Below, one piece after another: positions 1 through 32,057 of a DNA stretch of 64,000 bases. Under the pieces are notes generated by a model. It had not been told where the DNA came from. It saw nothing but the letters and a program-made list of their open reading frames with translations, and searched no databases. Numbering within the stretch: the first letter of the stretch is position 1; the number at the start of each line of letters is the position of its first letter. The translations under genes were made by a program, and so were the position numbers. This stretch comes from a virus. Where the stretch lies: positions 1 to 64,000 of IMG/VR virus record IMGVR_UViG_3300032315_001604. One strand, 5' to 3'.

Positions 1-33
1 AAACCCTCACGGAGAAATCCGTGGGGGTTTTTT
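1..33 (+). terminator. Rho-independent terminator (GAAA-capped hairpin + U tract)
   Basis: CCCTCACGGA-GAAA-TCCGTGGGGG then TTTTTT; identical copy at 452-484. Confidence 0.9.
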
Positions 34-69
34 ATTTCACACAGAACTCTCTCACCTGCAACAACTTAT

Positions 70-99
70 TAGAAGATTCCATGAGTCTTGTAATCTTCT
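70..99. promoter_or_regulatory. Inverted-repeat operator-like site TAGAAGATT-N13-AATCTTCT
   Basis: Same palindrome with 13-nt spacer at 518-548, 1363-1393, 1911-1941. Confidence 0.7.
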
Positions 100-127
100 G
101 AAGTCCCAAAATTCAGGAAAAAAACTA

Positions 128-155
128 TTGACTGCGGAAGTCTTTGGTATATCTT
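128..155 (+). promoter_or_regulatory. sigma70-type early promoter
   Basis: TTGACT-16nt-TATCTT preceded by A-tract; ATG 10 nt after the -10 box. Confidence 0.75.
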
Positions 156-165
156 GAGCCTCGTT

Positions 166-429
166 ATGAAAAAAACAACTGAACAACTAATCCTCGTCAT
201 CGGCGTAGCCATCTCATCATCCATTCTGACTGTTTTGGTCGGATTCGTGTGTATGATGTTCTACGTCATCCAACCCTATCAGAAGGAAGCCGTAGATCGT
301 GGCTTTGCTTCTTGGGATGTCGTGGACAATGCGACAGGCTCAACCAAGTTTTCTTGGAACGTGCTTGCCGAATCCCTTCATCCTGCCAACTCCGACATTC
401 TCGGAGAATTGGAAAAGCCTTTAGAGTAG
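166..429 (+). CDS. Small membrane protein (early cassette)
   Basis: ATG at 166 in CGTT-ATG context; N-terminal hydrophobic helix then QKEAVxxGxAxW motif shared with 25866-26042. Confidence 0.7.
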   Translation: MKKTTEQLILVIGVAISSSILTVLVGFVCMMFYVIQPYQKEAVDRGFASWDVVDNATGSTKFSWNVLAESLHPANSDILGELEKPLE

Positions 430-451
430 GGTTCTTAACATAACACAAACC

Positions 452-484
452 AAACCCTCACGGAGAAATCCGTGGGGGTTTTTT
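452..484 (+). terminator. Rho-independent terminator, exact repeat of 1-33
   Basis: 33-nt identity with 1-33. Confidence 0.9.
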
Positions 485-517
485 CTTGCTCGAATTCAAA
501 CCCGTATTCTCGAGCCA

Positions 518-548
518 TAGAAGATTGCAAGAATCAAATAATCTTCTA
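518..548. promoter_or_regulatory. Inverted-repeat operator-like site
   Basis: TAGAAGATT-N13-AATCTTCTA; half site again at 614-622. Confidence 0.7.
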
Positions 549-702
549 AGCCTCGATCTCGAACCTGCTCGAACTCGATGTCGAACATTCCGAAGAGTCT
601 CGAACCAACCCTTTAGAAGATTGCAAGATTCATCAAACATTTTCCCCCAATCCTGTCAAGTGTTTTCGTCAAAAAAAAGTTTTGAAAAAGTGAAAGATTC
701 CC

Positions 703-730
703 TTGCACCTCTCTCCCCTCATGCTATGCT
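703..730 (+). promoter_or_regulatory. sigma70-type early promoter
   Basis: TTGCAC-16nt-TATGCT with TG extension. Confidence 0.6.
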
Positions 731-734
731 TTCC

Positions 735-1265
735 ATGTTGTCAGAAGGCAACAAGGTCGGAACCGAACCTGTTAAACAAATCGGAACTGGCGAAAATCCA
801 GAAAGCAAAGTGAACATCGAAGAAATCAAAGCAAAGCTCAAAACCAAGAAAGGCGCGAACCTCTCCGTGGTCTTTGATCGTCAACTCAAGACTCGTAAAG
901 GAGTCATGGAAGCCGTCACCAAAGTTACTCGCATCGTTGCGCGTGGCGGGGTGGAATACGACAACCTTGGCATCGTCCAAGAAAAACGCGAGAACGGCGA
1001 ACTCCCCTCGGAGAACGCTGGACTCCCTTGGGGTGAGTGGGTGGAGTTTCCCCTTCACATCCGCCACAAGGACATGGACTATGCTCGCTTCTACCCTGCA
1101 AGCGGCATCGGCTTCAAGCCCCAAGTCTCCTACTTCCTCGACGGAGTGGAAGTCTCCAAGGATCAAGTGCAACCTCTCTGCCTCGCCTCGGAGTTTCCGA
1201 AGCGTGACGAAGAACCGCTTTGCTTCACGATCAAGGCGCACAATGTCGCCATGATCCGCGACTGA
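735..1265 (+). CDS. Hypothetical phage protein (early cassette)
   Basis: Track ORF 486..1265 trimmed to ATG downstream of promoter; the upstream part runs through repeats; GLPWGEW motif; followed by terminator. Confidence 0.7.
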   Translation: MLSEGNKVGTEPVKQIGTGENPESKVNIEEIKAKLKTKKGANLSVVFDRQLKTRKGVMEAVTKVTRIVARGGVEYDNLGIVQEKRENGELPSENAGLPWGEWVEFPLHIRHKDMDYARFYPASGIGFKPQVSYFLDGVEVSKDQVQPLCLASEFPKRDEEPLCFTIKAHNVAMIRD

Positions 1266-1288
1266 AGATTCTTCCAATCTTCTAACAG

Positions 1289-1320
1289 CCCCGATCATCG
1301 AAAGGTGGTCGGGGTTTTTT
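1289..1320 (+). terminator. Rho-independent terminator
   Basis: CCCCGATCATC-GAAA-GGTGGTCGGGG + T6. Confidence 0.9.
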
Positions 1321-1362
1321 GCATCTTGCCATCTTCTAAAACCCTCACCTGCAACGACTTAT

Positions 1363-1393
1363 TAGAAGATTTCATGAATCAAACAATCTTCTA
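1363..1393. promoter_or_regulatory. Inverted-repeat operator-like site
   Basis: TAGAAGATT-N13-AATCTTCTA preceded by CTCACCTGCA box. Confidence 0.7.
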
Positions 1394-1422
1394 AGCCTCG
1401 ATAAATCAGGAAAAATATTCCC

Positions 1423-1450
1423 TTGACTCTCCCATCAGACTCTTTATCTT
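1423..1450 (+). promoter_or_regulatory. sigma70-type early promoter
   Basis: TTGACT-16nt-TATCTT, ATG 10 nt after -10. Confidence 0.75.
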
Positions 1451-1460
1451 CTCCCTCGTT

Positions 1461-1826
1461 ATGAACACCACACCATCAACACTCAAACTGGCAGACCTCC
1501 AAGCCATTGCTGACCTCACAGCAAAGTTTCTCGGTCTGTCCTATAAGCCAAAGGCAGTCATCAAAGACACACGCAGGGGCAAAGCCTACACCCACAAGGG
1601 ATGGTTCTCCATTCCCCAATGGGCATGGCAACGTGGGGATCGCTACGTCACCTACTACACAGTCCACGAAGTCTGTCACTTCTATGCTGGTGGCATCAAT
1701 CACGGAAGTCTCTTCAAGAAGGTAGAGGATCGTGCTATGGCCTACTGGGGAATCTATCTGGAACGCAAGAAGGTCTACCCCAAACGAATCTTCGATGGCC
1801 CTTGCAAGAACGATACCATCTTCTAA
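1461..1826 (+). CDS. SprT/YgjP-like zincin metallopeptidase domain protein
   Basis: HEVCH followed by NHG..F. Confidence 0.6.
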   Translation: MNTTPSTLKLADLQAIADLTAKFLGLSYKPKAVIKDTRRGKAYTHKGWFSIPQWAWQRGDRYVTYYTVHEVCHFYAGGINHGSLFKKVEDRAMAYWGIYLERKKVYPKRIFDGPCKNDTIF

Positions 1827-1841
1827 TCTTTGTGTGTGGGG

Positions 1842-1879
1842 AACCCCATCATCCGAAAGGGTGGTGGGGTTTTTCTTTT
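1842..1879 (+). terminator. Rho-independent terminator
   Basis: CCCCATCATCC-GAAA-GGGTGGTGGGG + T tract. Confidence 0.9.
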
Positions 1880-1910
1880 GTCCAGAACTCTCTCACCTGC
1901 ACGGATCAAT

Positions 1911-1941
1911 TAGAAGATTCAATGAGTCAAGCCATCTTCTA
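1911..1941. promoter_or_regulatory. Inverted-repeat operator-like site
   Basis: TAGAAGATT-N13-CATCTTCTA preceded by CAGAACTCTCTCACCTGCA shared with 42-60. Confidence 0.7.
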
Positions 1942-1968
1942 AGCCTGAAAGTATTTTGAAAAAAACTA

Positions 1969-1996
1969 TTGACCTCTCCATCAGACCTGATAATTT
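1969..1996 (+). promoter_or_regulatory. sigma70-type early promoter
   Basis: TTGACC-16nt-TAATTT with TG extension. Confidence 0.7.
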
Positions 1997-2006
1997 TATC
2001 ACCGTT

Positions 2007-2237
2007 ATGAACAAACACACATTCAAACGTGGACGAGGCAGCAACCCTGCTTCCAAAAACAACCTCAAACTCGGAGCCGCCTCACGCAACTGGTGGGTCT
2101 ATGAGCGTGGTGCTGGCATCGGTTGGACTCCAGTATTCGGCCCTTACTTCCAGAAGAAAGCTATGGAGATCGCATCCTCCCTTGAAGCCACCAACCAAGA
2201 CAAATCCAACCCCATCTACACAGCAGCAACAATCTAA
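2007..2237 (+). CDS. Hypothetical protein (early cassette)
   Basis: ATG in CGTT-ATG context 10 nt after -10 box. Confidence 0.65.
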   Translation: MNKHTFKRGRGSNPASKNNLKLGAASRNWWVYERGAGIGWTPVFGPYFQKKAMEIASSLEATNQDKSNPIYTAATI

Positions 2238-2245
2238 CCACTACC

Positions 2246-2419
2246 ATGAACCAATACATCGCCTACAACAAACTCACAGGTCTTTACTGGCAAGTCGGTA
2301 AAGGCTTCACCACAAGCAAGTGTGCAGCCACCTTACTGTCACCTGCTGAACTGGCAGTCCTTAACTATACCTACGATAACGTCTCTCACGAAATCGTTGC
2401 CCTCCGTCTTGTCTACTAA
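2246..2419 (+). CDS. Small hypothetical protein, 57 aa (not in ORF track)
   Basis: MNQYIAYNKLTGLYWQVGKG...; ACC-ATG context, tightly packed between neighbours. Confidence 0.55.
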   Translation: MNQYIAYNKLTGLYWQVGKGFTTSKCAATLLSPAELAVLNYTYDNVSHEIVALRLVY

Positions 2420-2423
2420 TACC

Positions 2424-2624
2424 ATGAACAGAAACATTACCTTCAAACGTAAAGGAGTCACCTTCAGAGTCGAAGAATTCTTTGAGGACACCACACCCAA
2501 CATCAATGTCTGGGTCTTGAACAAGGAAGGGAACCATTGGGATTGGAAGATGCTAACCACTTGGGACTACGAGAAAGTTGTCCGTGCTTTGAAGAGTAAA
2601 GGAATGGACTACTTCAAAGACTGA
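2424..2624 (+). CDS. Small hypothetical protein
   Basis: ACC-ATG start; followed by terminator. Confidence 0.6.
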   Translation: MNRNITFKRKGVTFRVEEFFEDTTPNINVWVLNKEGNHWDWKMLTTWDYEKVVRALKSKGMDYFKD

Positions 2625-2645
2625 TCGATCTCAACCTCGATGTCT

Positions 2646-2677
2646 AACCCACCGCTGGAAACGGCGGTGGGTTTTTT
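2646..2677 (+). terminator. Rho-independent terminator
   Basis: CCCACCGCTG-GAAA-CGGCGGTGGG + T6. Confidence 0.9.
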
Positions 2678-2833
2678 CGTGTCTGTGTTTATATAAACAT
2701 GTCATCTTCTAAAACCGTTATGACACGACACACAGTAAATTTTTCAGCATGTGTTTATGACAGACCCATGCTGTGAAAATATGCCTATAGGAACCTTAGA
2801 AGATTAGAAGCTTCATGGGGCAATGCCCCCTAC

Positions 2834-2861
2834 CCTATATAGGTATAGGTATAGGTATAGG
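2834..2861. repeat. (TATAGG)x4 tandem repeat starting in CCTATATAGG palindrome
   Basis: TATAGG at 2838, 2844, 2850, 2856. Confidence 0.9.
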
Positions 2862-2895
2862 TATACAGTCTTTTACTTGAATCTTTCCTTACCCT

Positions 2896-3564
2896 TTAAT
2901 TTTTTGTAATAGGGTTTCTGTAAACAGTTTGGCCTTTTTCGAATACTATGATACTATCGTAGAAGCTGATGGAAGTTGTGTTATTTCCTGACTCTGTTTC
3001 TTGATAACCGCTTCTTGTTCCTCTGTTAATTCCATCTGGATCTATATTAGCCGTCTTTGCATTGATTTGGTCTATATAGTCCTTTGCATACTCTGTAAAG
3101 GATTTTTGATAATCTCCTGAGAATTCTTTCCAATATGAGGTATGGGTATCTTCCACGGCATAGATTCCTAGAGTAGAGAGTTTTGGATAGAGATATTCGA
3201 AGGTTTTGATCTGGTGGCTCCATTGGTGACTTCCGTCATCCAAAACGATAGTGGGTATACCGAATTCGTCTATGATACTCTGTAAGAAGTTTGGATCCGA
3301 TTGATCGCCTATTCTCACGGAAATTTCTCCATCATCGAATCTTTTGCAGTTTCCATTTATATCCACTCCGACGATTTTGGTATAGGGACCGAAATAGTTT
3401 TTCCACATTTGCAAGGAACCTCCGTTATTGACTCCTATTTCCAGAAAGAGAAAGGATTTGTTTACTAGATGGGAGAAATGTTTTTCATAGGTTGGCAGAT
3501 ACCAAGGCCATTTGCACATTTCGTTTCCCTTGTGATTATTAAATTGATTCCAGAGTGACATCAT
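2896..3564 (-). CDS. Class I SAM-dependent methyltransferase (MycE/Methyltransf_24-like)
   Basis: LEIGVNNGGSL, GVDIN, GDQSD, IVLDDGSH, VEDTHTSYW motifs. Confidence 0.85.
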   Translation of the reverse strand: MMSLWNQFNNHKGNEMCKWPWYLPTYEKHFSHLVNKSFLFLEIGVNNGGSLQMWKNYFGPYTKIVGVDINGNCKRFDDGEISVRIGDQSDPNFLQSIIDEFGIPTIVLDDGSHQWSHQIKTFEYLYPKLSTLGIYAVEDTHTSYWKEFSGDYQKSFTEYAKDYIDQINAKTANIDPDGINRGTRSGYQETESGNNTTSISFYDSIIVFEKGQTVYRNPITKN

Positions 3565-3607
3565 ATTATATTAGATATTTTTCAGAGAAAGTCAATAAAT
3601 ACTGATA

Positions 3608-4003
3608 ATGAAGTTTTCCGATTATATGAGTTCTAATTTTGAAGGTGCAGGTTTTTTGTTTGTGACATTGGATGATAAAATTCTGATGTTACAGAAGCCG
3701 AACAAGAAGTGGAGTCTGGTTGGAGGGCATAGTGAGAAGGGGGAATCTCCTTTGGAGACTGCTCAGAGGGAATGTAAGGAAGAAATTGGTTTTTTACCTT
3801 CAGGTAAAATTTTTAAAAATATCAAATATAAAAAAGCCGAATCGGATTGTTATTCTTTTGTCCAAAGGGTTGATTCGAAATTCAAACCTCGTTTATCATC
3901 GGAACATATTGACTATAAATGGATACCTTTCAAAAAAATTAACAAGTATGTTATATCCAAAGCAGTTCGTGACTTGCTTCCTCATCTGAAAGGAATGTTT
4001 TAA
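3608..4003 (+). CDS. Nudix hydrolase
   Basis: Nudix box GGHSEKGESPLETAQRECKEEIG. Confidence 0.9.
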   Translation: MKFSDYMSSNFEGAGFLFVTLDDKILMLQKPNKKWSLVGGHSEKGESPLETAQRECKEEIGFLPSGKIFKNIKYKKAESDCYSFVQRVDSKFKPRLSSEHIDYKWIPFKKINKYVISKAVRDLLPHLKGMF

Positions 4004-16451: not shown

Positions 16452-16908
16452 TGGTGGAGGTGTCGGAGTGCTGCCCTCCGAGTCTTTATAATCTACATTT
16501 ATATGTCTACATGTTTTAGTATCTTTAGCATTTCAGTCACCATACGGTAACGAAGACTTTAGGCTGCTTGGTGACACTAACCGAATTTTTAGTCTGCCTA
16601 TAGATATTAACGCAATCTATATACGGATAGTATTTTGTTTATTATGTCAGAATTACTAACAACCCGACACCCTCTGCTATCAATGAACTCTTAGAGGATC
16701 TAAGTTCAAGGTCTTTAGGCTGCTAAGAGCATTTCGTCTTCAGCACCTACGAGATACTCGTCGGCGTTGTTGAAGATATGTTCAGCTTCAGCTAAGATGG
16801 AGTCAGTATTATCTGCTCTTAATTTTTAATCGATTTTTTACGAGGCCATCGATTAACCTCGACATGCGATACAAATTTCAATTATAAATCGAAATCTAAT
16901 TCACCCCC
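16452..16908 (-). ncRNA. ssrA: tmRNA
   Basis: 5-prime GGGGGTG pairs with CACCTCC-A-CCA including G3:U70; UA at -5/-4 before GCA resume codon; tag ORF 16816-16715 ends LLAA-TAA. Confidence 0.92.
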
Positions 16909-21049: not shown

Positions 21050-21274
21050 ATGATTAATGTAGAAGTAAAAATATTCAAAAAAGGAGATCAGAAATTAGCT
21101 TTAGATAAAGCACTCCAAAGACTAAAAACAAAATTAACCAATGAAGGTGTAATGGATACAGTAAGAGCAAAAAGAGCTTTTGAAACACCCAAGGAAAAAA
21201 GAGAAAGAAAATTAAGAAACAGACTTAAATTAATTAAAAGTAAAAAATCCTTTGACAGAAAGAAAGATCTTTGA
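21050..21274 (+). CDS. rpsU: 30S ribosomal protein bS21 homolog
   Basis: LDKALQRLK...EG...VRAKRAFETPKEKRERK matches the bS21 pattern. Confidence 0.85.
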   Translation: MINVEVKIFKKGDQKLALDKALQRLKTKLTNEGVMDTVRAKRAFETPKEKRERKLRNRLKLIKSKKSFDRKKDL

Positions 21275-21500: not shown

Positions 21501-21585
21501 GGTAGCGTACTCAAGTGGTTTACGAGAACTGTTTACTAAACAGTCGAACAGAAATGTTCCGTGAGTTCGAATCTCACCGCTACCA
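21501..21585 (+). tRNA. tRNA-Ser(ACT), long variable arm
   Basis: ACTGT-TTACTAA-ACAGT; G1,G2,U3 acceptor, G15:C48, GAACA-GAAA-TGTTC arm. Confidence 0.8.
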
Positions 21586-24198: not shown

Positions 24199-24842
24199 AA
24201 ATAAAACATTACATCAAAGAAGTAACCCCTGATATTTTTGCTGTTGTTATTAAAAACAAATATGATCGCGCCATGCTTTTTTGTCGCGCCCAAGAATATT
24301 ATGAAAGCCCAAGTCCTAAGTTTCGTGGAAAACAATTTTCTATTTGGGACTATATGAAATGGTATCATGAAAGATACGGAAGGGGATTTAGTTATGCAAA
24401 TGATTGGTCTGGTTTTAATATACCCCTCAAAATTATCACTCAATGCTATAATAAACTTGGTAAATTTGAAATACCCTATGATAAAATAGCGTATGATATT
24501 ATCGTAAAAATAAATAGAAATTGTGTTTTTGCGGATGGTTATGTGATTGGTTGCGGTGATACAAAAGGTGATACCTTCAAACATGAGGTTTGTCATGGTC
24601 TTTATTACACCGATAAAAAATACAAAAAGAAAATGGATGCTTTGACCAAAGGACTTCCAAAACAAATTTACAATACATTCAAGAAAAATATTTTAGAAAT
24701 GGGATATACTACAAAAGTCGTTGATGATGAGATACAAGCATATCTTCAATATGGATATGAAAATGAAGATTTTGGAAAAGGGGTTGACATTGGTGTTCGT
24801 ATCGAATATAGTAGTCTTTATAAACAACAATCAAAATTATGA
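24195..24842 (+). CDS. HExxH-containing hypothetical protein
   Basis: FKHEVCHGLYY...DEIQAY. Confidence 0.55.
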   Translation: MKIKHYIKEVTPDIFAVVIKNKYDRAMLFCRAQEYYESPSPKFRGKQFSIWDYMKWYHERYGRGFSYANDWSGFNIPLKIITQCYNKLGKFEIPYDKIAYDIIVKINRNCVFADGYVIGCGDTKGDTFKHEVCHGLYYTDKKYKKKMDALTKGLPKQIYNTFKKNILEMGYTTKVVDDEIQAYLQYGYENEDFGKGVDIGVRIEYSSLYKQQSKL

Positions 24843-25213
24843 AAGCAAAACATACATTTAAATACACATACGAAGAAGGCTGTGAAAACTTTTCACCAGT
24901 TGAAGTCATTTTTGATATACCAACAGGAGAAGTAACTATTACTCAAATGCTTTACAACTTTGAGTGTTACTTGAAAGCTTGTGGCTTTGTCTTTGATGGA
25001 CATTTGGAAGTTGTACCAGAAAGTGGTTATGATGTCATCGATGATACAGACTATTGTTGTATGGGTGATACTGATTATATCAAAACTGATTGTATCGGCA
25101 AGGAACATACACCCAATCACGAAATAGAAAAAAACAAATGGGTTCATGGTATGTGCAATCCTCCTTCACCTGATTGGAAGAAACAAGAAAACAATTGGTA
25201 TCATAACGAATGA
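24839..25213 (+). CDS. Hypothetical protein
   Basis: ATGA overlap packing. Confidence 0.55.
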   Translation: MKAKHTFKYTYEEGCENFSPVEVIFDIPTGEVTITQMLYNFECYLKACGFVFDGHLEVVPESGYDVIDDTDYCCMGDTDYIKTDCIGKEHTPNHEIEKNKWVHGMCNPPSPDWKKQENNWYHNE

Positions 25214-25512
25214 AAAAACCTACACATAAACAAAAGATTGAAATGTATGAAAAATTCTTACATAAGATTAATATGTGTGTAATGTGTTGTAATGATACAG
25301 GAGTTAGAGAACTTGTACATAATGCAGATAATTGGTCTTATATGCATCGTGTAGGAAACGGAGAACCCTCTGAAAGAGAACAACAAAGATTGATTACAAA
25401 AGCATTTTGGCAACTTTGCGATACTCCAGAATCGGATAAAGAAGTCGAAGAAAGACAAAGAATATATACCGAAAAGAAAAAAGAAAGAGAAGAAGCTGCT
25501 ATAAATTTATGA
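25210..25512 (+). CDS. Hypothetical protein
   Basis: ATGA overlap packing. Confidence 0.55.
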   Translation: MKKPTHKQKIEMYEKFLHKINMCVMCCNDTGVRELVHNADNWSYMHRVGNGEPSEREQQRLITKAFWQLCDTPESDKEVEERQRIYTEKKKEREEAAINL

Positions 25513-25856
25513 AAAAGAAAAATAATAAATTTAAACCATATCCATCGACAGATGTATGTTCACCATATTATGATTCAAAATCAACAATTACGGAGGAACA
25601 TTACACACTAGACGGTGATCATCCCGAAGATCGAATCTATAGAGATAAAGAATTTATCAACAGACTTCAATCACATATTGATTTGGTATATGATATTTTA
25701 GCTATGGATTTAAAACTTAATGAAAAGGGCAAAGAATGGCTTTTTGATTTTGTTTATAACGAAGAAGAAAATATTGAGTTTGAAAACTTCTTGGCAAAAT
25801 ATAAGGTCAAGTATAAAGATCTGGTTACTTCAAATGATTGGTATCATAATCAATAA
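25509..25856 (+). CDS. Hypothetical protein
   Basis: ATGA overlap packing. Confidence 0.55.
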   Translation: MKKKNNKFKPYPSTDVCSPYYDSKSTITEEHYTLDGDHPEDRIYRDKEFINRLQSHIDLVYDILAMDLKLNEKGKEWLFDFVYNEEENIEFENFLAKYKVKYKDLVTSNDWYHNQ

Positions 25857-25865
25857 AATAAATTT

Positions 25866-26042
25866 ATGAACGAAAATGGTCCTGTATATATTCTAATGAT
25901 GATCTTTGTCCTAATAGCAATATTCATCTTTGGTGGTGCTGTTAGTGGCTCTCAATGGCAAAAAGAAGCTGTAAAAGCTGGAGTTGCTGAATGGGTAGCA
26001 GATGCGAATGGTGATGCTAAATTTCAATTTAAGACAAAATAA
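25866..26042 (+). CDS. Small membrane protein, paralog of 166-429 (not in track)
   Basis: Helix then QKEAVKAGVAEW...GDAKFQF. Confidence 0.6.
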   Translation: MNENGPVYILMMIFVLIAIFIFGGAVSGSQWQKEAVKAGVAEWVADANGDAKFQFKTK

Positions 26043-26046
26043 ATAT

Positions 26047-26229
26047 ATGATAACAAAACTAGTAGCATTAATCGCAGTAGTTGCCTCATCTATCGGATTG
26101 AGTGTGGCAACTCTTATCTATGGGTGGGGATTAGAACCGAAAAGCTGGACAGCAATTATAATTTTCGGTATATTTGGTCAAGTTGTTGTAAGCAGTCTTT
26201 ATAGAAAAATCATGGAAGATGGCAAATGA
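26047..26229 (+). CDS. Two-helix membrane protein
   Basis: Hydrophobic segments. Confidence 0.5.
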   Translation: MITKLVALIAVVASSIGLSVATLIYGWGLEPKSWTAIIIFGIFGQVVVSSLYRKIMEDGK

Positions 26230-26456
26230 AATACAGAATTAAAGAAGAAACAAAGATGGGTAAACATTACTTTTACCCTCAATATAAAAAATTCCTATTC
26301 TGGAAGAATATGACTGAACGTGATGTTAAGGATGTAGTTGTATACCCTCACCTAAAAGGAGCTAGAGATCATATTGAAATCTTTGAAGAGAGACTAAACA
26401 AGAAAAAGAAGCTTGATAGTTACAAACAAGTATTGTATCATTCCTATATATCATAG
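26226..26456 (+). CDS. Hypothetical protein
   Basis: MKYRIKEE...FYPQYKKFLFW. Confidence 0.55.
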   Translation: MKYRIKEETKMGKHYFYPQYKKFLFWKNMTERDVKDVVVYPHLKGARDHIEIFEERLNKKKKLDSYKQVLYHSYIS

Positions 26457-26717
26457 ATGAAATATAAATTTGTAGAAACTCAAGGTTGCACGGCATTTGG
26501 CTTCACTGTCAATGATGAAGACCTTGCTAATATTTCCAAAGAGAAACAAAAAGAAATTATTGATTATCTTTGTGAAAAAATGAAAGAAGAAATTGATAAA
26601 GGAACTGTTTTGTTTTCAGATATTGTTGGAGTTTTTCAAGAAACGGATCATGGTTCTGAAAAAGAACCTTGCGATCAATGCTATGATACTGTAAGTTGGA
26701 CTATATGGGAGATTTAA
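26457..26717 (+). CDS. Hypothetical protein (CxxC)
   Basis: ORF packing. Confidence 0.55.
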   Translation: MKYKFVETQGCTAFGFTVNDEDLANISKEKQKEIIDYLCEKMKEEIDKGTVLFSDIVGVFQETDHGSEKEPCDQCYDTVSWTIWEI

Positions 26718-26719
26718 AT

Positions 26720-27256
26720 ATGAATACAAATGAATATGTAAAAATATTGGAAGAAGAGTGTGGCAAAAATCAAACACACAAGAAAAAGCATATTAAAAAA
26801 AGCACAGGTATAAATGCGCTTTACATAACAGAAAAACCAGATTATAGTTGGACGATTAAAGATCGTTTGAAACTTACTTTTATTATTCTTAAAAACCGTT
26901 GGATGTTTTTGAAAAACTACAACCCTCTGGATTTTAGATCTTATGAAGAAGAATATAACCCATATGGGTTTGATAAGATCTATACTAAATTTCACAGAAC
27001 ATCAACTCCATTAACTCGTTTTAAAAATTTTTGGGGTGAATTTGAAACTACTTTAAAAAATATTAAAGATGGTTTTTTATATACCCCACTCGCTGTTAAA
27101 CACTATCAAAAAAATAAAGAAAGAATATCTTGGTTTGAAGAAAACCTTTCAAGAATGTTTGCCGATAAGTTAGATGTTGATGTTAGAAAAGAATTAGATA
27201 AACATGGATATGATCTTGACGGACAAGGTAGAATTTGTTATAAAGTAAAGGAATGA
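26720..27256 (+). CDS. Hypothetical protein
   Basis: ORF packing. Confidence 0.55.
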   Translation: MNTNEYVKILEEECGKNQTHKKKHIKKSTGINALYITEKPDYSWTIKDRLKLTFIILKNRWMFLKNYNPLDFRSYEEEYNPYGFDKIYTKFHRTSTPLTRFKNFWGEFETTLKNIKDGFLYTPLAVKHYQKNKERISWFEENLSRMFADKLDVDVRKELDKHGYDLDGQGRICYKVKE

Positions 27257-27420
27257 AAATTGTAATTCTATCTTTACTTTTAACTGGATGCACAACGCTT
27301 ACAGATAAAATGGTAAAACCTGCCATTACTGAAGATAACTATTGGAAAACTCCTTGTATTTGGGATGGAACTATTTTAAAAAAACCTTGGCTTAAAAAAA
27401 ATGAAAGTTCGAATCAATAA
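27253..27420 (+). CDS. Small lipoprotein (not in track)
   Basis: MKIVILSLLLTG-C lipobox. Confidence 0.6.
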   Translation: MKIVILSLLLTGCTTLTDKMVKPAITEDNYWKTPCIWDGTILKKPWLKKNESSNQ

Positions 27421-27802
27421 CATTGGTGCAGAGCCTGTAACGTATATTGGCAAAAGATTTGAAGAGCCAATATATGAATGCTCTATTGTAAAGTATTATT
27501 TTAATAGGTATTATGGAATGCTGGAACAATACCTGAAAGATGGCTGGGTAGATAATGGCGATTGTCTTACTTATAAGAATGCTTCTATTAGTAAGAGTTG
27601 CTTTTTGGGTAAAGAAACAAATTATGTTATAGCATTTCTTAAATACAACAAAGATGGTGGCTATACAGAACTTGAATCGGTTTGTGATAGATTGCTTTAC
27701 ATCGAAGAGGATGAGAAAAAAGATTTCTTTGAAGTTTATAAAATTGCTGATAGGATGATAATAGAGAAGGTTGACAAAGATGAAAAACAAAATTCAAATT
27801 GA
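27401..27802 (+). CDS. Hypothetical protein
   Basis: ORF packing. Confidence 0.55.
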   Translation: MKVRINNIGAEPVTYIGKRFEEPIYECSIVKYYFNRYYGMLEQYLKDGWVDNGDCLTYKNASISKSCFLGKETNYVIAFLKYNKDGGYTELESVCDRLLYIEEDEKKDFFEVYKIADRMIIEKVDKDEKQNSN

Positions 27803-27932
27803 AAAACAAATAAAAACAGCCAAATCTATTTTAAAAGATATAGAATTAAGCTATAAGAATAAAGATGGAAGATATGGTGTTTATGCATATTCCGTCCAAC
27901 ATGAAGAATTGAAAAGGTTGGAAAATTTATGA
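27780..27932 (+). CDS. Small hypothetical protein (not in track)
   Basis: 50-aa ORF, TGA overlaps next ATG. Confidence 0.45.
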   Translation: MKNKIQIEKQIKTAKSILKDIELSYKNKDGRYGVYAYSVQHEELKRLENL

Positions 27933-28054
27933 GTGATAAATTAGAAAAAATCATGGAAGAGATTGGTAAATTGACAATTACCGAACTTAACGAACTTATT
28001 AAAAGTTTAGAACCTATCTTTACACCAAAAGAAGAAAATACATTGACTGATTAA
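27929..28054 (+). CDS. Ribosomal protein bL12 N-terminal-domain-only mini-protein, 41 aa (not in track)
   Basis: MSDKLEKIMEEIGKLTITELNELIKSLEPIF matches the L7/L12 dimerisation helices (I..I.KLT..EL.EL.K.LE..F); no hinge or CTD. Confidence 0.65.
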   Translation: MSDKLEKIMEEIGKLTITELNELIKSLEPIFTPKEENTLTD

Positions 28055-28070
28055 ATATATCTGGTAAATT
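28043..28070 (+). promoter_or_regulatory. sigma70-type promoter for ncRNA/tRNA-Asn
   Basis: TTGACT-16nt-TAAATT with TG extension. Confidence 0.55.
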
Positions 28071-28077
28071 AGATATA

Positions 28078-28089
28078 GTTCTTTGAAAA
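28078..28089 (+). promoter_or_regulatory. boxA-like element
   Basis: GTTCTTTGAAAA right after the predicted start site. Confidence 0.6.
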
Positions 28090-28101
28090 ATTTAAAAAAG
28101 T

Positions 28102-28673
28102 TTAGTGCTGGATAGTCGGACCAGCACTAAAAATCCTGATGCGAAACCCATCAGGTCAGAGATAGGTTTAACCAATTAACAACTCTGCAATAAATGGATT
28201 GGTTTATAAAAAGGTATGCAACTCTACCTCTCTATATAACGGATACGTGTCCGTGTTCTGATCAGACATATAGAGTCCCATAGTGGATAGCTTGGAAGCG
28301 AAAAAAAAGAGTGTAGGTTCTGGGTAAACCAAAGCTATATAGGCTAAAACTCTTGTCCCGAAAGGGGTAAAGGTTCTGTGTTCTTCTGTTGTTGGCTTAT
28401 TGCCAACCAGAAGCCAGCAGTTTAAGGCGCAACTTAAACATCAGTCTGGTCCTGTTTGCGACAAAAACACCAATTTTAAGCCGAGAATCCTAACGAGATT
28501 CTAGTCAGAACCCACTGATGAGATGAAGCTGGTCGTTCCAGTAATAAGGGGGATGGTTGCCATGACCCGCATACGGTGTGCGTAAGTTGACTCGTCTGAA
28601 AAGATAGGGAGTCCGTGCTTGATTCCAGAAGGAAAAATCCGAAAGGAAAATGATGGTATGTAAAGACAGCCGA
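28102..28673 (+). ncRNA. Large structured ncRNA candidate (GOLLD/ROOL size class)
   Basis: No credible ORF; at least 10 hairpins incl. a perfect 10-bp stem and GNRA loops; ends a few nt before tRNA-Asn. Confidence 0.75.
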
Positions 28674-28679
28674 ATTTTT

Positions 28680-28751
28680 TGATGCGTAGCTCAATGGTAG
28701 AGCACTTGGCTGTTAACCAGGCTGTTGTAGGTTCGAGTCCTACCGCATCAG
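28680..28751 (+). tRNA. tRNA-Asn(GTT)
   Basis: CTTGG-CTGTTAA-CCAGG; U1:A72; G73. Confidence 0.9.
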
Positions 28752-28762
28752 TAATTATTATT

Positions 28763-31964: not shown

Positions 31965-32057
31965 AGTCCTATAGTTTAACGGTAAAACAGCACTCTTATA
32001 CAGTGTAAGCTGGGCGACTCTGGCGTGATGAAGGTTCGAATCCTTCTAGGACTACCA
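31965..32057 (+). tRNA. tRNA-Ile(TAT) with long variable arm
   Basis: GCACT-CTTATAC-AGTGT; 23-nt variable region; A73 and CCA. Confidence 0.75.

Follow-up and report, generated by a model that had tools for sequence, protein, structure and literature searches.

A gene of 41 codons in a T4-like phage encodes a stand-alone homolog of the N-terminal domain of the ribosomal stalk protein bL12. The peptide carries neither the hinge nor the factor-recruiting C-terminal domain of bL12. Our preferred reading, to which we give an even chance, is that the peptide acts as a free N-terminal domain that would lower the number of stalk heads on the ribosomes of the host. The gene was found in a stretch of 64,000 nucleotides (hereafter the window; positions 1 to 64,000 of IMG/VR record IMGVR_UViG_3300032315_001604). 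The source record is a 195-kb viral contig, which is T4-like and has an estimated completeness of 92%. The gene, its two parts and the ORF that precedes it are as follows.

27929..28054, plus strand: gene of 41 codons for the stand-alone bL12 N-terminal domain homolog, supported by the ORF, the PF16320 match, the homolog clusters and dN/dS
27929..28024, plus strand: conserved core (residues 1–32), two predicted helices, co-extensive with the bL12 N-terminal domain
28025..28054, plus strand: variable polar or acidic tail (residues 33–41) and stop codon, variable in length and sequence and predicted to be disordered
27771..27932, plus strand: upstream small ORF, with its TGA overlapping the ATG of the peptide gene

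The ORF begins with an ATG at 27929 and ends with a TAA at 28052–28054; the start, the stop and the peptide are exactly those given in the original prediction. Its frame is open for 49 codons only and contains no earlier in-frame start. The TGA of the upstream ORF (27930–27932) shares bases with the ATG at 27929, which confirms the predicted ATGA overlap. The gene is the final member of a series of approximately 12 co-oriented and mostly overlapping short ORFs (24839–28054), and most of the overlaps are a few bases long. Its neighbors in the window are small ORFs without a known family. Among related loci the neighbors are shuffled; the upstream neighbor varies, and the start of the peptide gene always abuts or overlaps some upstream ORF. 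Within 6 kb around the gene, there are 77 ORFs of at least 25 aa. An ORF of 41 codons is by itself unremarkable in this AT-rich DNA; it is the conservation and the homology that raise this one above chance. The gene had been described as hidden, a description that does not hold, because the JGI pipeline calls it and several of its homologs are named 'ribosomal protein L7/L12' by JGI.

A search of 5.8 billion proteins revealed at least 32 metagenome clusters of homologs with 75–94% identity and lengths of 29–60 aa (usually 36–44 aa), located on contigs of up to 225 kb. In an alignment of 30 sequences, 18 columns of residues 1–32 are invariant and 8 are nearly invariant. The invariant core residues include hydrophobic and polar ones, and the tail past residue 33 differs in length and sequence among the homologs. 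The 96-nt core was compared across 16 loci, where nine DNA haplotypes encode only three peptide variants. The 19 variable core sites are distributed over codon positions 1, 2 and 3 as 5, 0 and 14, respectively, and the pairwise dN/dS of the gene is 0.04–0.12. The 41-codon ORF is a real gene under purifying selection at the amino-acid level.

A search for longer relatives yielded nothing beyond a call of 79 aa with an N-terminal extension and an extended form of 93 aa; no full-length phage bL12 was among its matches. The 93-aa relative (P0043, L031:2523-2804) has approximately 60 aa of coiled-coil-like sequence appended to a core that resembles the bL12 N-terminal domain. Its contig is phage-like, and JGI mislabels the protein as terminase Nu1. 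This form was seen on one contig and could be a fusion artefact or the product of a frameshift. No family in PHROGs matched the peptide. Among GenBank phages, tblastn with the peptide gave chance-level matches only, and blastn with the region matched tRNA-Asn alone.

The original prediction stated that the peptide resembles the N-terminal domain of bL12 and no other part of it. The Pfam profile of this domain, the link to a genuine full-length bL12, the profile-profile alignment and the PDB matches all agree with this statement. PF16320 (Ribosomal_L12_N) matches residues 4–28 with 26.1 bits (E = 6.8e-6), which marginally passes the curated Pfam gathering cut-off of 25 bits; the search with an L12 N-terminal profile that had been proposed as a check thus gave a significant match. 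In a six-frame scan, the same stretch scored 24.2 bits. Relatives scored 26.3 bits, and a precomputed PF16320 match is present in 27 of the 32 homolog clusters. We also built a profile from 30 family members and ran it over 1.84 billion representative proteins with no word index. Full-length bL12 proteins were retrieved in addition to family members. The best of these was P0048 (127 aa, E = 1.2e-6 among 1.84e9 proteins), which has both Pfam bL12 domains and whose gene is located directly 3' of a uL10 gene (rplJ-linked). Alignment of the family with ten cellular sequences by hhalign gave a probability of 97.6% and an E-value of 4.6e-12, with 56% identity over 32 columns. Among PDB sequences, bL12 chains were the only matches, including those of the L10-L12(NTD) complex 1ZAV; the best was an N-terminal fragment from T. 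maritima (E = 1.2e-5 with the profile). A systematic difference lies at the end of helix 2, which reads LEPIF(T/A)P in the phage family versus LE(E/D)KFGV in cellular bL12. As judged from these comparisons, residues 1–32 are homologous to the N-terminal domain of bL12, which is responsible for dimerization and uL10 binding.

AlphaFold2 predicted a helix at residues 3–13, a turn and a second helix at residues 17–31 (pLDDT 93–96), followed by a disordered tail. The model was superimposed on the uL10-bound N-terminal chain 1zav_U with an rmsd of 0.9 Å over 28 columns. A match to the bL12 N-terminal domain in Foldseek had a good fit and a non-significant E-value of 3.7. In a VIA-align search of 48,161 PDB representatives, the bL12 N-terminal fragment 1dd3_C ranked at the top with a Z-score of 4.0, and unrelated hairpins followed at 3.9–3.5. 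Hairpins of two helices are common and serve as generic interaction modules. Therefore, the predicted hairpin is consistent with the homology but is no proof of it, and bL12 fragments are not discriminated from unrelated hairpins by the structural scores.

The peptide ends 9 residues beyond the core and has no hinge and no C-terminal domain. The profile of the bL12 C-terminal domain (PF00542) had no match in six frames of the phage or in five related records, including two near-complete genomes, whereas the same search was positive in 12 of 14 control genomes. The predicted form without a C-terminal domain was thus borne out, as neither a hinge nor this domain occurs in any frame of the phage or of the two near-complete relatives. 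Given this shared lack of the domain, the N-terminal-only form is no local truncation but the state under selection in the family. The uL10 profile (PF00466) also had no match in six frames of the phage, and the peptide gene is not adjacent to rplJ. Because the phage encodes neither uL10 nor a bL12 head, the partners of the putative stalk peptide must be supplied by the host.

The phage was placed by its major capsid protein gp23 (G000:C1:136070-137146, locus L017), which is at most approximately 36% identical to those of cultivated T4-like phages. More than 600 viral contigs in IMG/VR carry gp23 with 68–89% identity to that of the phage. Judged by this marker, the lineage is evidently abundant and is without a cultivated member. 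The peptide gene is present in three of five near-complete genomes of the lineage and missing from two near-complete relatives whose gp23 proteins are 84% and 75% identical; three positive controls in this search scored E-values of approximately 1e-26. The peptide gene is an accessory gene of a sub-clade and is dispensable for the lineage.

Two other genes related to translation in the window are as follows.

21050-21274, plus strand: bS21 homolog of 74 aa inside the tRNA cluster (PF01165, 40 bits)
16452-16908, minus strand: one-piece tmRNA (Rfam RF00023, 93 bits)

The bS21 gene is present in all five near-complete genomes, and a tmRNA homolog was detected in all five peptide-bearing relatives that were tested (92–143 bits). 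A search for the host in the scanned bacterial genomes gave no close bacterial relative of the phage bS21 or purA. The window contains 13 tRNAs. ARAGORN reported two unusual tRNAs: a tRNA-Ser (21501-21585, anticodon ACT), which fell short of the gathering score for tRNA in Rfam, and a tRNA-Ile (31965-32057, anticodon TAT). The GC content is 43.6% at window positions 1–4000 and approximately 30% in the remainder. A Shine-Dalgarno motif (GGAG/GAGG) precedes 3.7% of 215 phage ORFs, against a background of 3.7%; just before the phage start codons, G is depleted and A is enriched. Because the motif is not enriched, the host probably initiates translation without Shine-Dalgarno pairing.

The N-terminal domain of bL12 in isolation dimerizes and binds uL10 (titles of PDB entries 1rqt and 1zav; domain limits in PMC1635324), and the C-terminal domain recruits GTPase factors (PMC10931766). 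A copy without the head should therefore cap the stalk or form dimers with a single head. The original prediction likewise supposed that such a mimic could displace or cap bL12 of the host and so retune GTPase recruitment. Homodimers of the peptide could occupy uL10 sites of the host, or the peptide could pair with host bL12 to give single-headed heterodimers; by either route, fewer factor-recruiting C-terminal domains would be present per ribosome. In E. coli, steps that depend on IF2 and EF-G are slower on ribosomes that carry a single bL12 dimer and not two (PMC3299993), and a graded down-tuning of factor recruitment is therefore expected. With fewer heads, the steps sensitive to stalk multiplicity, namely subunit joining driven by IF2 and the action of EF-G, would become slower, and translation may be re-tuned in this manner during infection. 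Viruses favor ribosomal proteins that are easily exchanged (PMC6375957), and bL12 is considered easy to exchange once ribosomes are assembled (PMC6375957; PMC1635324). We infer that the peptide dimerizes, binds uL10 or host bL12, affects translation and is expressed early.

A fuller version of this proposal can be put forward tentatively, and we consider it doubtful. By exchange into host ribosomes, the peptide would cap the stalk, reduce the number of bL12 heads and create a phage-specific ribosome state, which together with bS21 and tmRNA might favor phage messages that lack Shine-Dalgarno sequences or might selectively alter trans-translation. The link to trans-translation is more speculative than the expected down-tuning. 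It is suggested by a small-molecule drug directed at the N-terminal domain of bL12, which is reported to block trans-translation but not normal translation (PMC12548414), and by the tmRNA found in every peptide-bearing relative tested. Several points stand against the stalk model. The LEPIF(T/A)P end of helix 2 could alter the choice of partner, the predicted hairpin does not score above unrelated hairpins, the gene is dispensable in view of the two near-complete relatives without it, and the benefit of fewer stalk heads is not obvious for a phage that needs fast translation.

A non-coding block of approximately 620 nt (28055-28678, plus strand) begins right after the stop codon of the peptide gene and reaches tRNA-Asn at 28679-28752. 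It is 80–94% identical in 13 of 15 related loci, and whole hairpins are swapped or inserted between loci. RNAalifold gave 157 pairs, 11 of which have compensatory changes, and long-range helices were included. An Rfam scan of the region gave no match for the block, which looks like a large structured RNA according to this folding model. The idea that it mimics the GTPase center of 23S rRNA and could thus be a partner of the peptide was dropped, because Rfam gave no match and the bacterial LSU model, in a weak test, had none in the phage. In most loci, the peptide ORF stops exactly at the start of the block. The arrangement varies in the others: approximately 620 nt lie between the peptide gene and the RNA in L005 and L008, another ORF intervenes in L006 and L007, and no match to the block was found in L004, where tRNA-Asn alone matches, approximately 2.9 kb downstream. 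A promoter-like site (28043-28070) overlaps the 3' end of the peptide gene; such matches are no more common than in shuffled sequence.

The position of the ORF at the edge of this block, together with the promoter-like site over its 3' end, would suit a regulatory small ORF that serves as a leader or coupling element for the downstream RNA and tRNA-Asn, with the peptide itself irrelevant. The ORF could alternatively be the decaying remnant of a full-length phage bL12. Both readings are largely refuted, and we regard them as very improbable. The low dN/dS and the excess of changes at third codon positions reveal selection on the amino-acid sequence. The linkage to the RNA is variable in L004, L005/L008 and L006/L007, a length of 36–44 aa is usual across the 32 clusters, and no trace of the C-terminal domain occurs in any frame. 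The leader-peptide and pseudogene readings were rejected on the basis of dN/dS and of this inconstant linkage. A different possibility is that the peptide acts away from the ribosome, where its target would be unbound bL12 of the host or the uL10-(bL12)n complex and where it would disturb the assembly of the stalk or the autoregulation of the host rplJ-rplL mRNA. It draws on the same homology evidence as the stalk model (PF16320, P0048 and hhalign), and the L10(L12)4 complex is an autogenous repressor of rplJ-rplL translation (PMC10931766). However, the evidence does not separate such action from capping on the ribosome, and the ready exchange of bL12 (PMC6375957; PMC1635324) makes action on the ribosome at least as likely. 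We consider the off-ribosome variant improbable.

The main alternative is that the bL12 N-terminal fold was kept as a dimerization or adaptor module and acquired a new partner among the phage proteins or the non-ribosomal proteins of the host, with no action on the stalk. The family-specific LEPIF(T/A)P in place of the cellular KFGV at the end of helix 2 is consistent with such a change, and the coiled-coil-like extension of P0043 hints at modular use, although the one contig with this form may represent a fusion artefact. Hairpins of helices serve generically in interactions, and the gene is an accessory one in a shuffled region. However, the core shares 56% identity with cellular N-terminal domains and retains their entire hydrophobic face, and such a level would be unusually high after a change of partner. 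Moreover, no linked candidate for another partner was found, and the neighbors vary. On balance, exaptation of this kind appears unlikely, though less so than action away from the ribosome, and a peptide that lowers the number of stalk heads remains the reading that we prefer.

The core of the phage peptide corresponds to the N-terminal domain of cellular bL12 (L7/L12, rplL), with 56% identity over 32 columns, and its predicted hairpin has the length of the fragments of 30–32 residues that were crystallized by themselves and in complex with uL10. The phage peptide differs from the cellular protein in that it lacks the hinge and the C-terminal factor-binding domain, it is encoded by a phage and not beside uL10, and a short variable acidic tail replaces the hinge rich in Ala and Gly. 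Fragments of L7/L12 prepared in the laboratory (1rqt, 1dd3 chain C and 1zav) span the same residues as the core of the phage peptide, and the titles of the entries 1rqt, 1dd3 and 1zav indicate that the isolated domain folds, dimerizes and binds uL10. Those fragments are engineered or proteolytic, whereas the phage peptide is the product of a naturally encoded and selected gene.

A survey by Mizuno et al. (2019) ranked bL12 and bS21 as the most frequent ribosomal proteins in viruses (PMC6375957). The viral bL12 in that study was the 'Ribosomal_L12' C-terminal domain (PF00542), either alone or within proteins of up to 724 aa; the carriers were cultivated phages under 80 kb, and the N-terminal domain is not mentioned in the text (PMC6375957). 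Both the surveyed genes and the peptide gene are phage genes from rplL and are thought to engage host ribosomes. However, the peptide represents the complementary half of the protein, it occurs in T4-like phages of approximately 200 kb, and it would imply occupation of the anchor site instead of the supply of heads. L7/L12 was also listed in huge phages by Al-Shayeb et al. (2020), with no domain detail. The bS21 of phages such as Pelagibacter phage HTVC008M and the peptide are both small exchangeable ribosomal proteins of aquatic T4-like phages; bS21 is a full-length replacement present in five of five genomes, whereas the bL12 N-terminal peptide is truncated and present in three of five.

No description of an N-terminal-only viral bL12, and no paper citing PF16320 or Ribosomal_L12_N, was found in the searched literature, where viral bL12 is described only as the C-terminal domain PF00542. 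The statement in the original prediction that such a form was not known is consistent with this result. Virus-encoded homologs of ribosomal proteins are already known, and the new element within the searched literature is the N-terminal-only form of bL12.

Single-domain 'microprotein' inhibitors, which consist of a dimerization domain without an effector domain, titrate their multi-domain partners. By analogy, a like domain logic would predict dominant-negative behavior for the phage peptide, although the sequences are unrelated and the target would be the ribosomal stalk instead of a transcription factor.

The ribosomal proteins known from phages are viewed as replacements, each of which provides a functional component. 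A selected gene for the anchor alone implies the opposite strategy, a graded subtraction of ribosome function in the host. If our preferred reading is correct, the peptide would be a natural reagent of 41 residues with which the number of bL12 heads can be varied. The long-standing question of why each ribosome has four to eight bL12 copies, and of the translation steps that depend on this number, would then become directly testable. A peptide that does cap the stalk would be the first biological agent known to regulate the bL12 copy number on ribosomes. If the peptide instead has another partner, it would still be a clean case of a ribosomal protein domain that was captured and repurposed by a virus. 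Should the stalk be its target, the peptide would add a new layer to the takeover of translation by large aquatic phages, alongside bS21, tmRNA and tRNAs.
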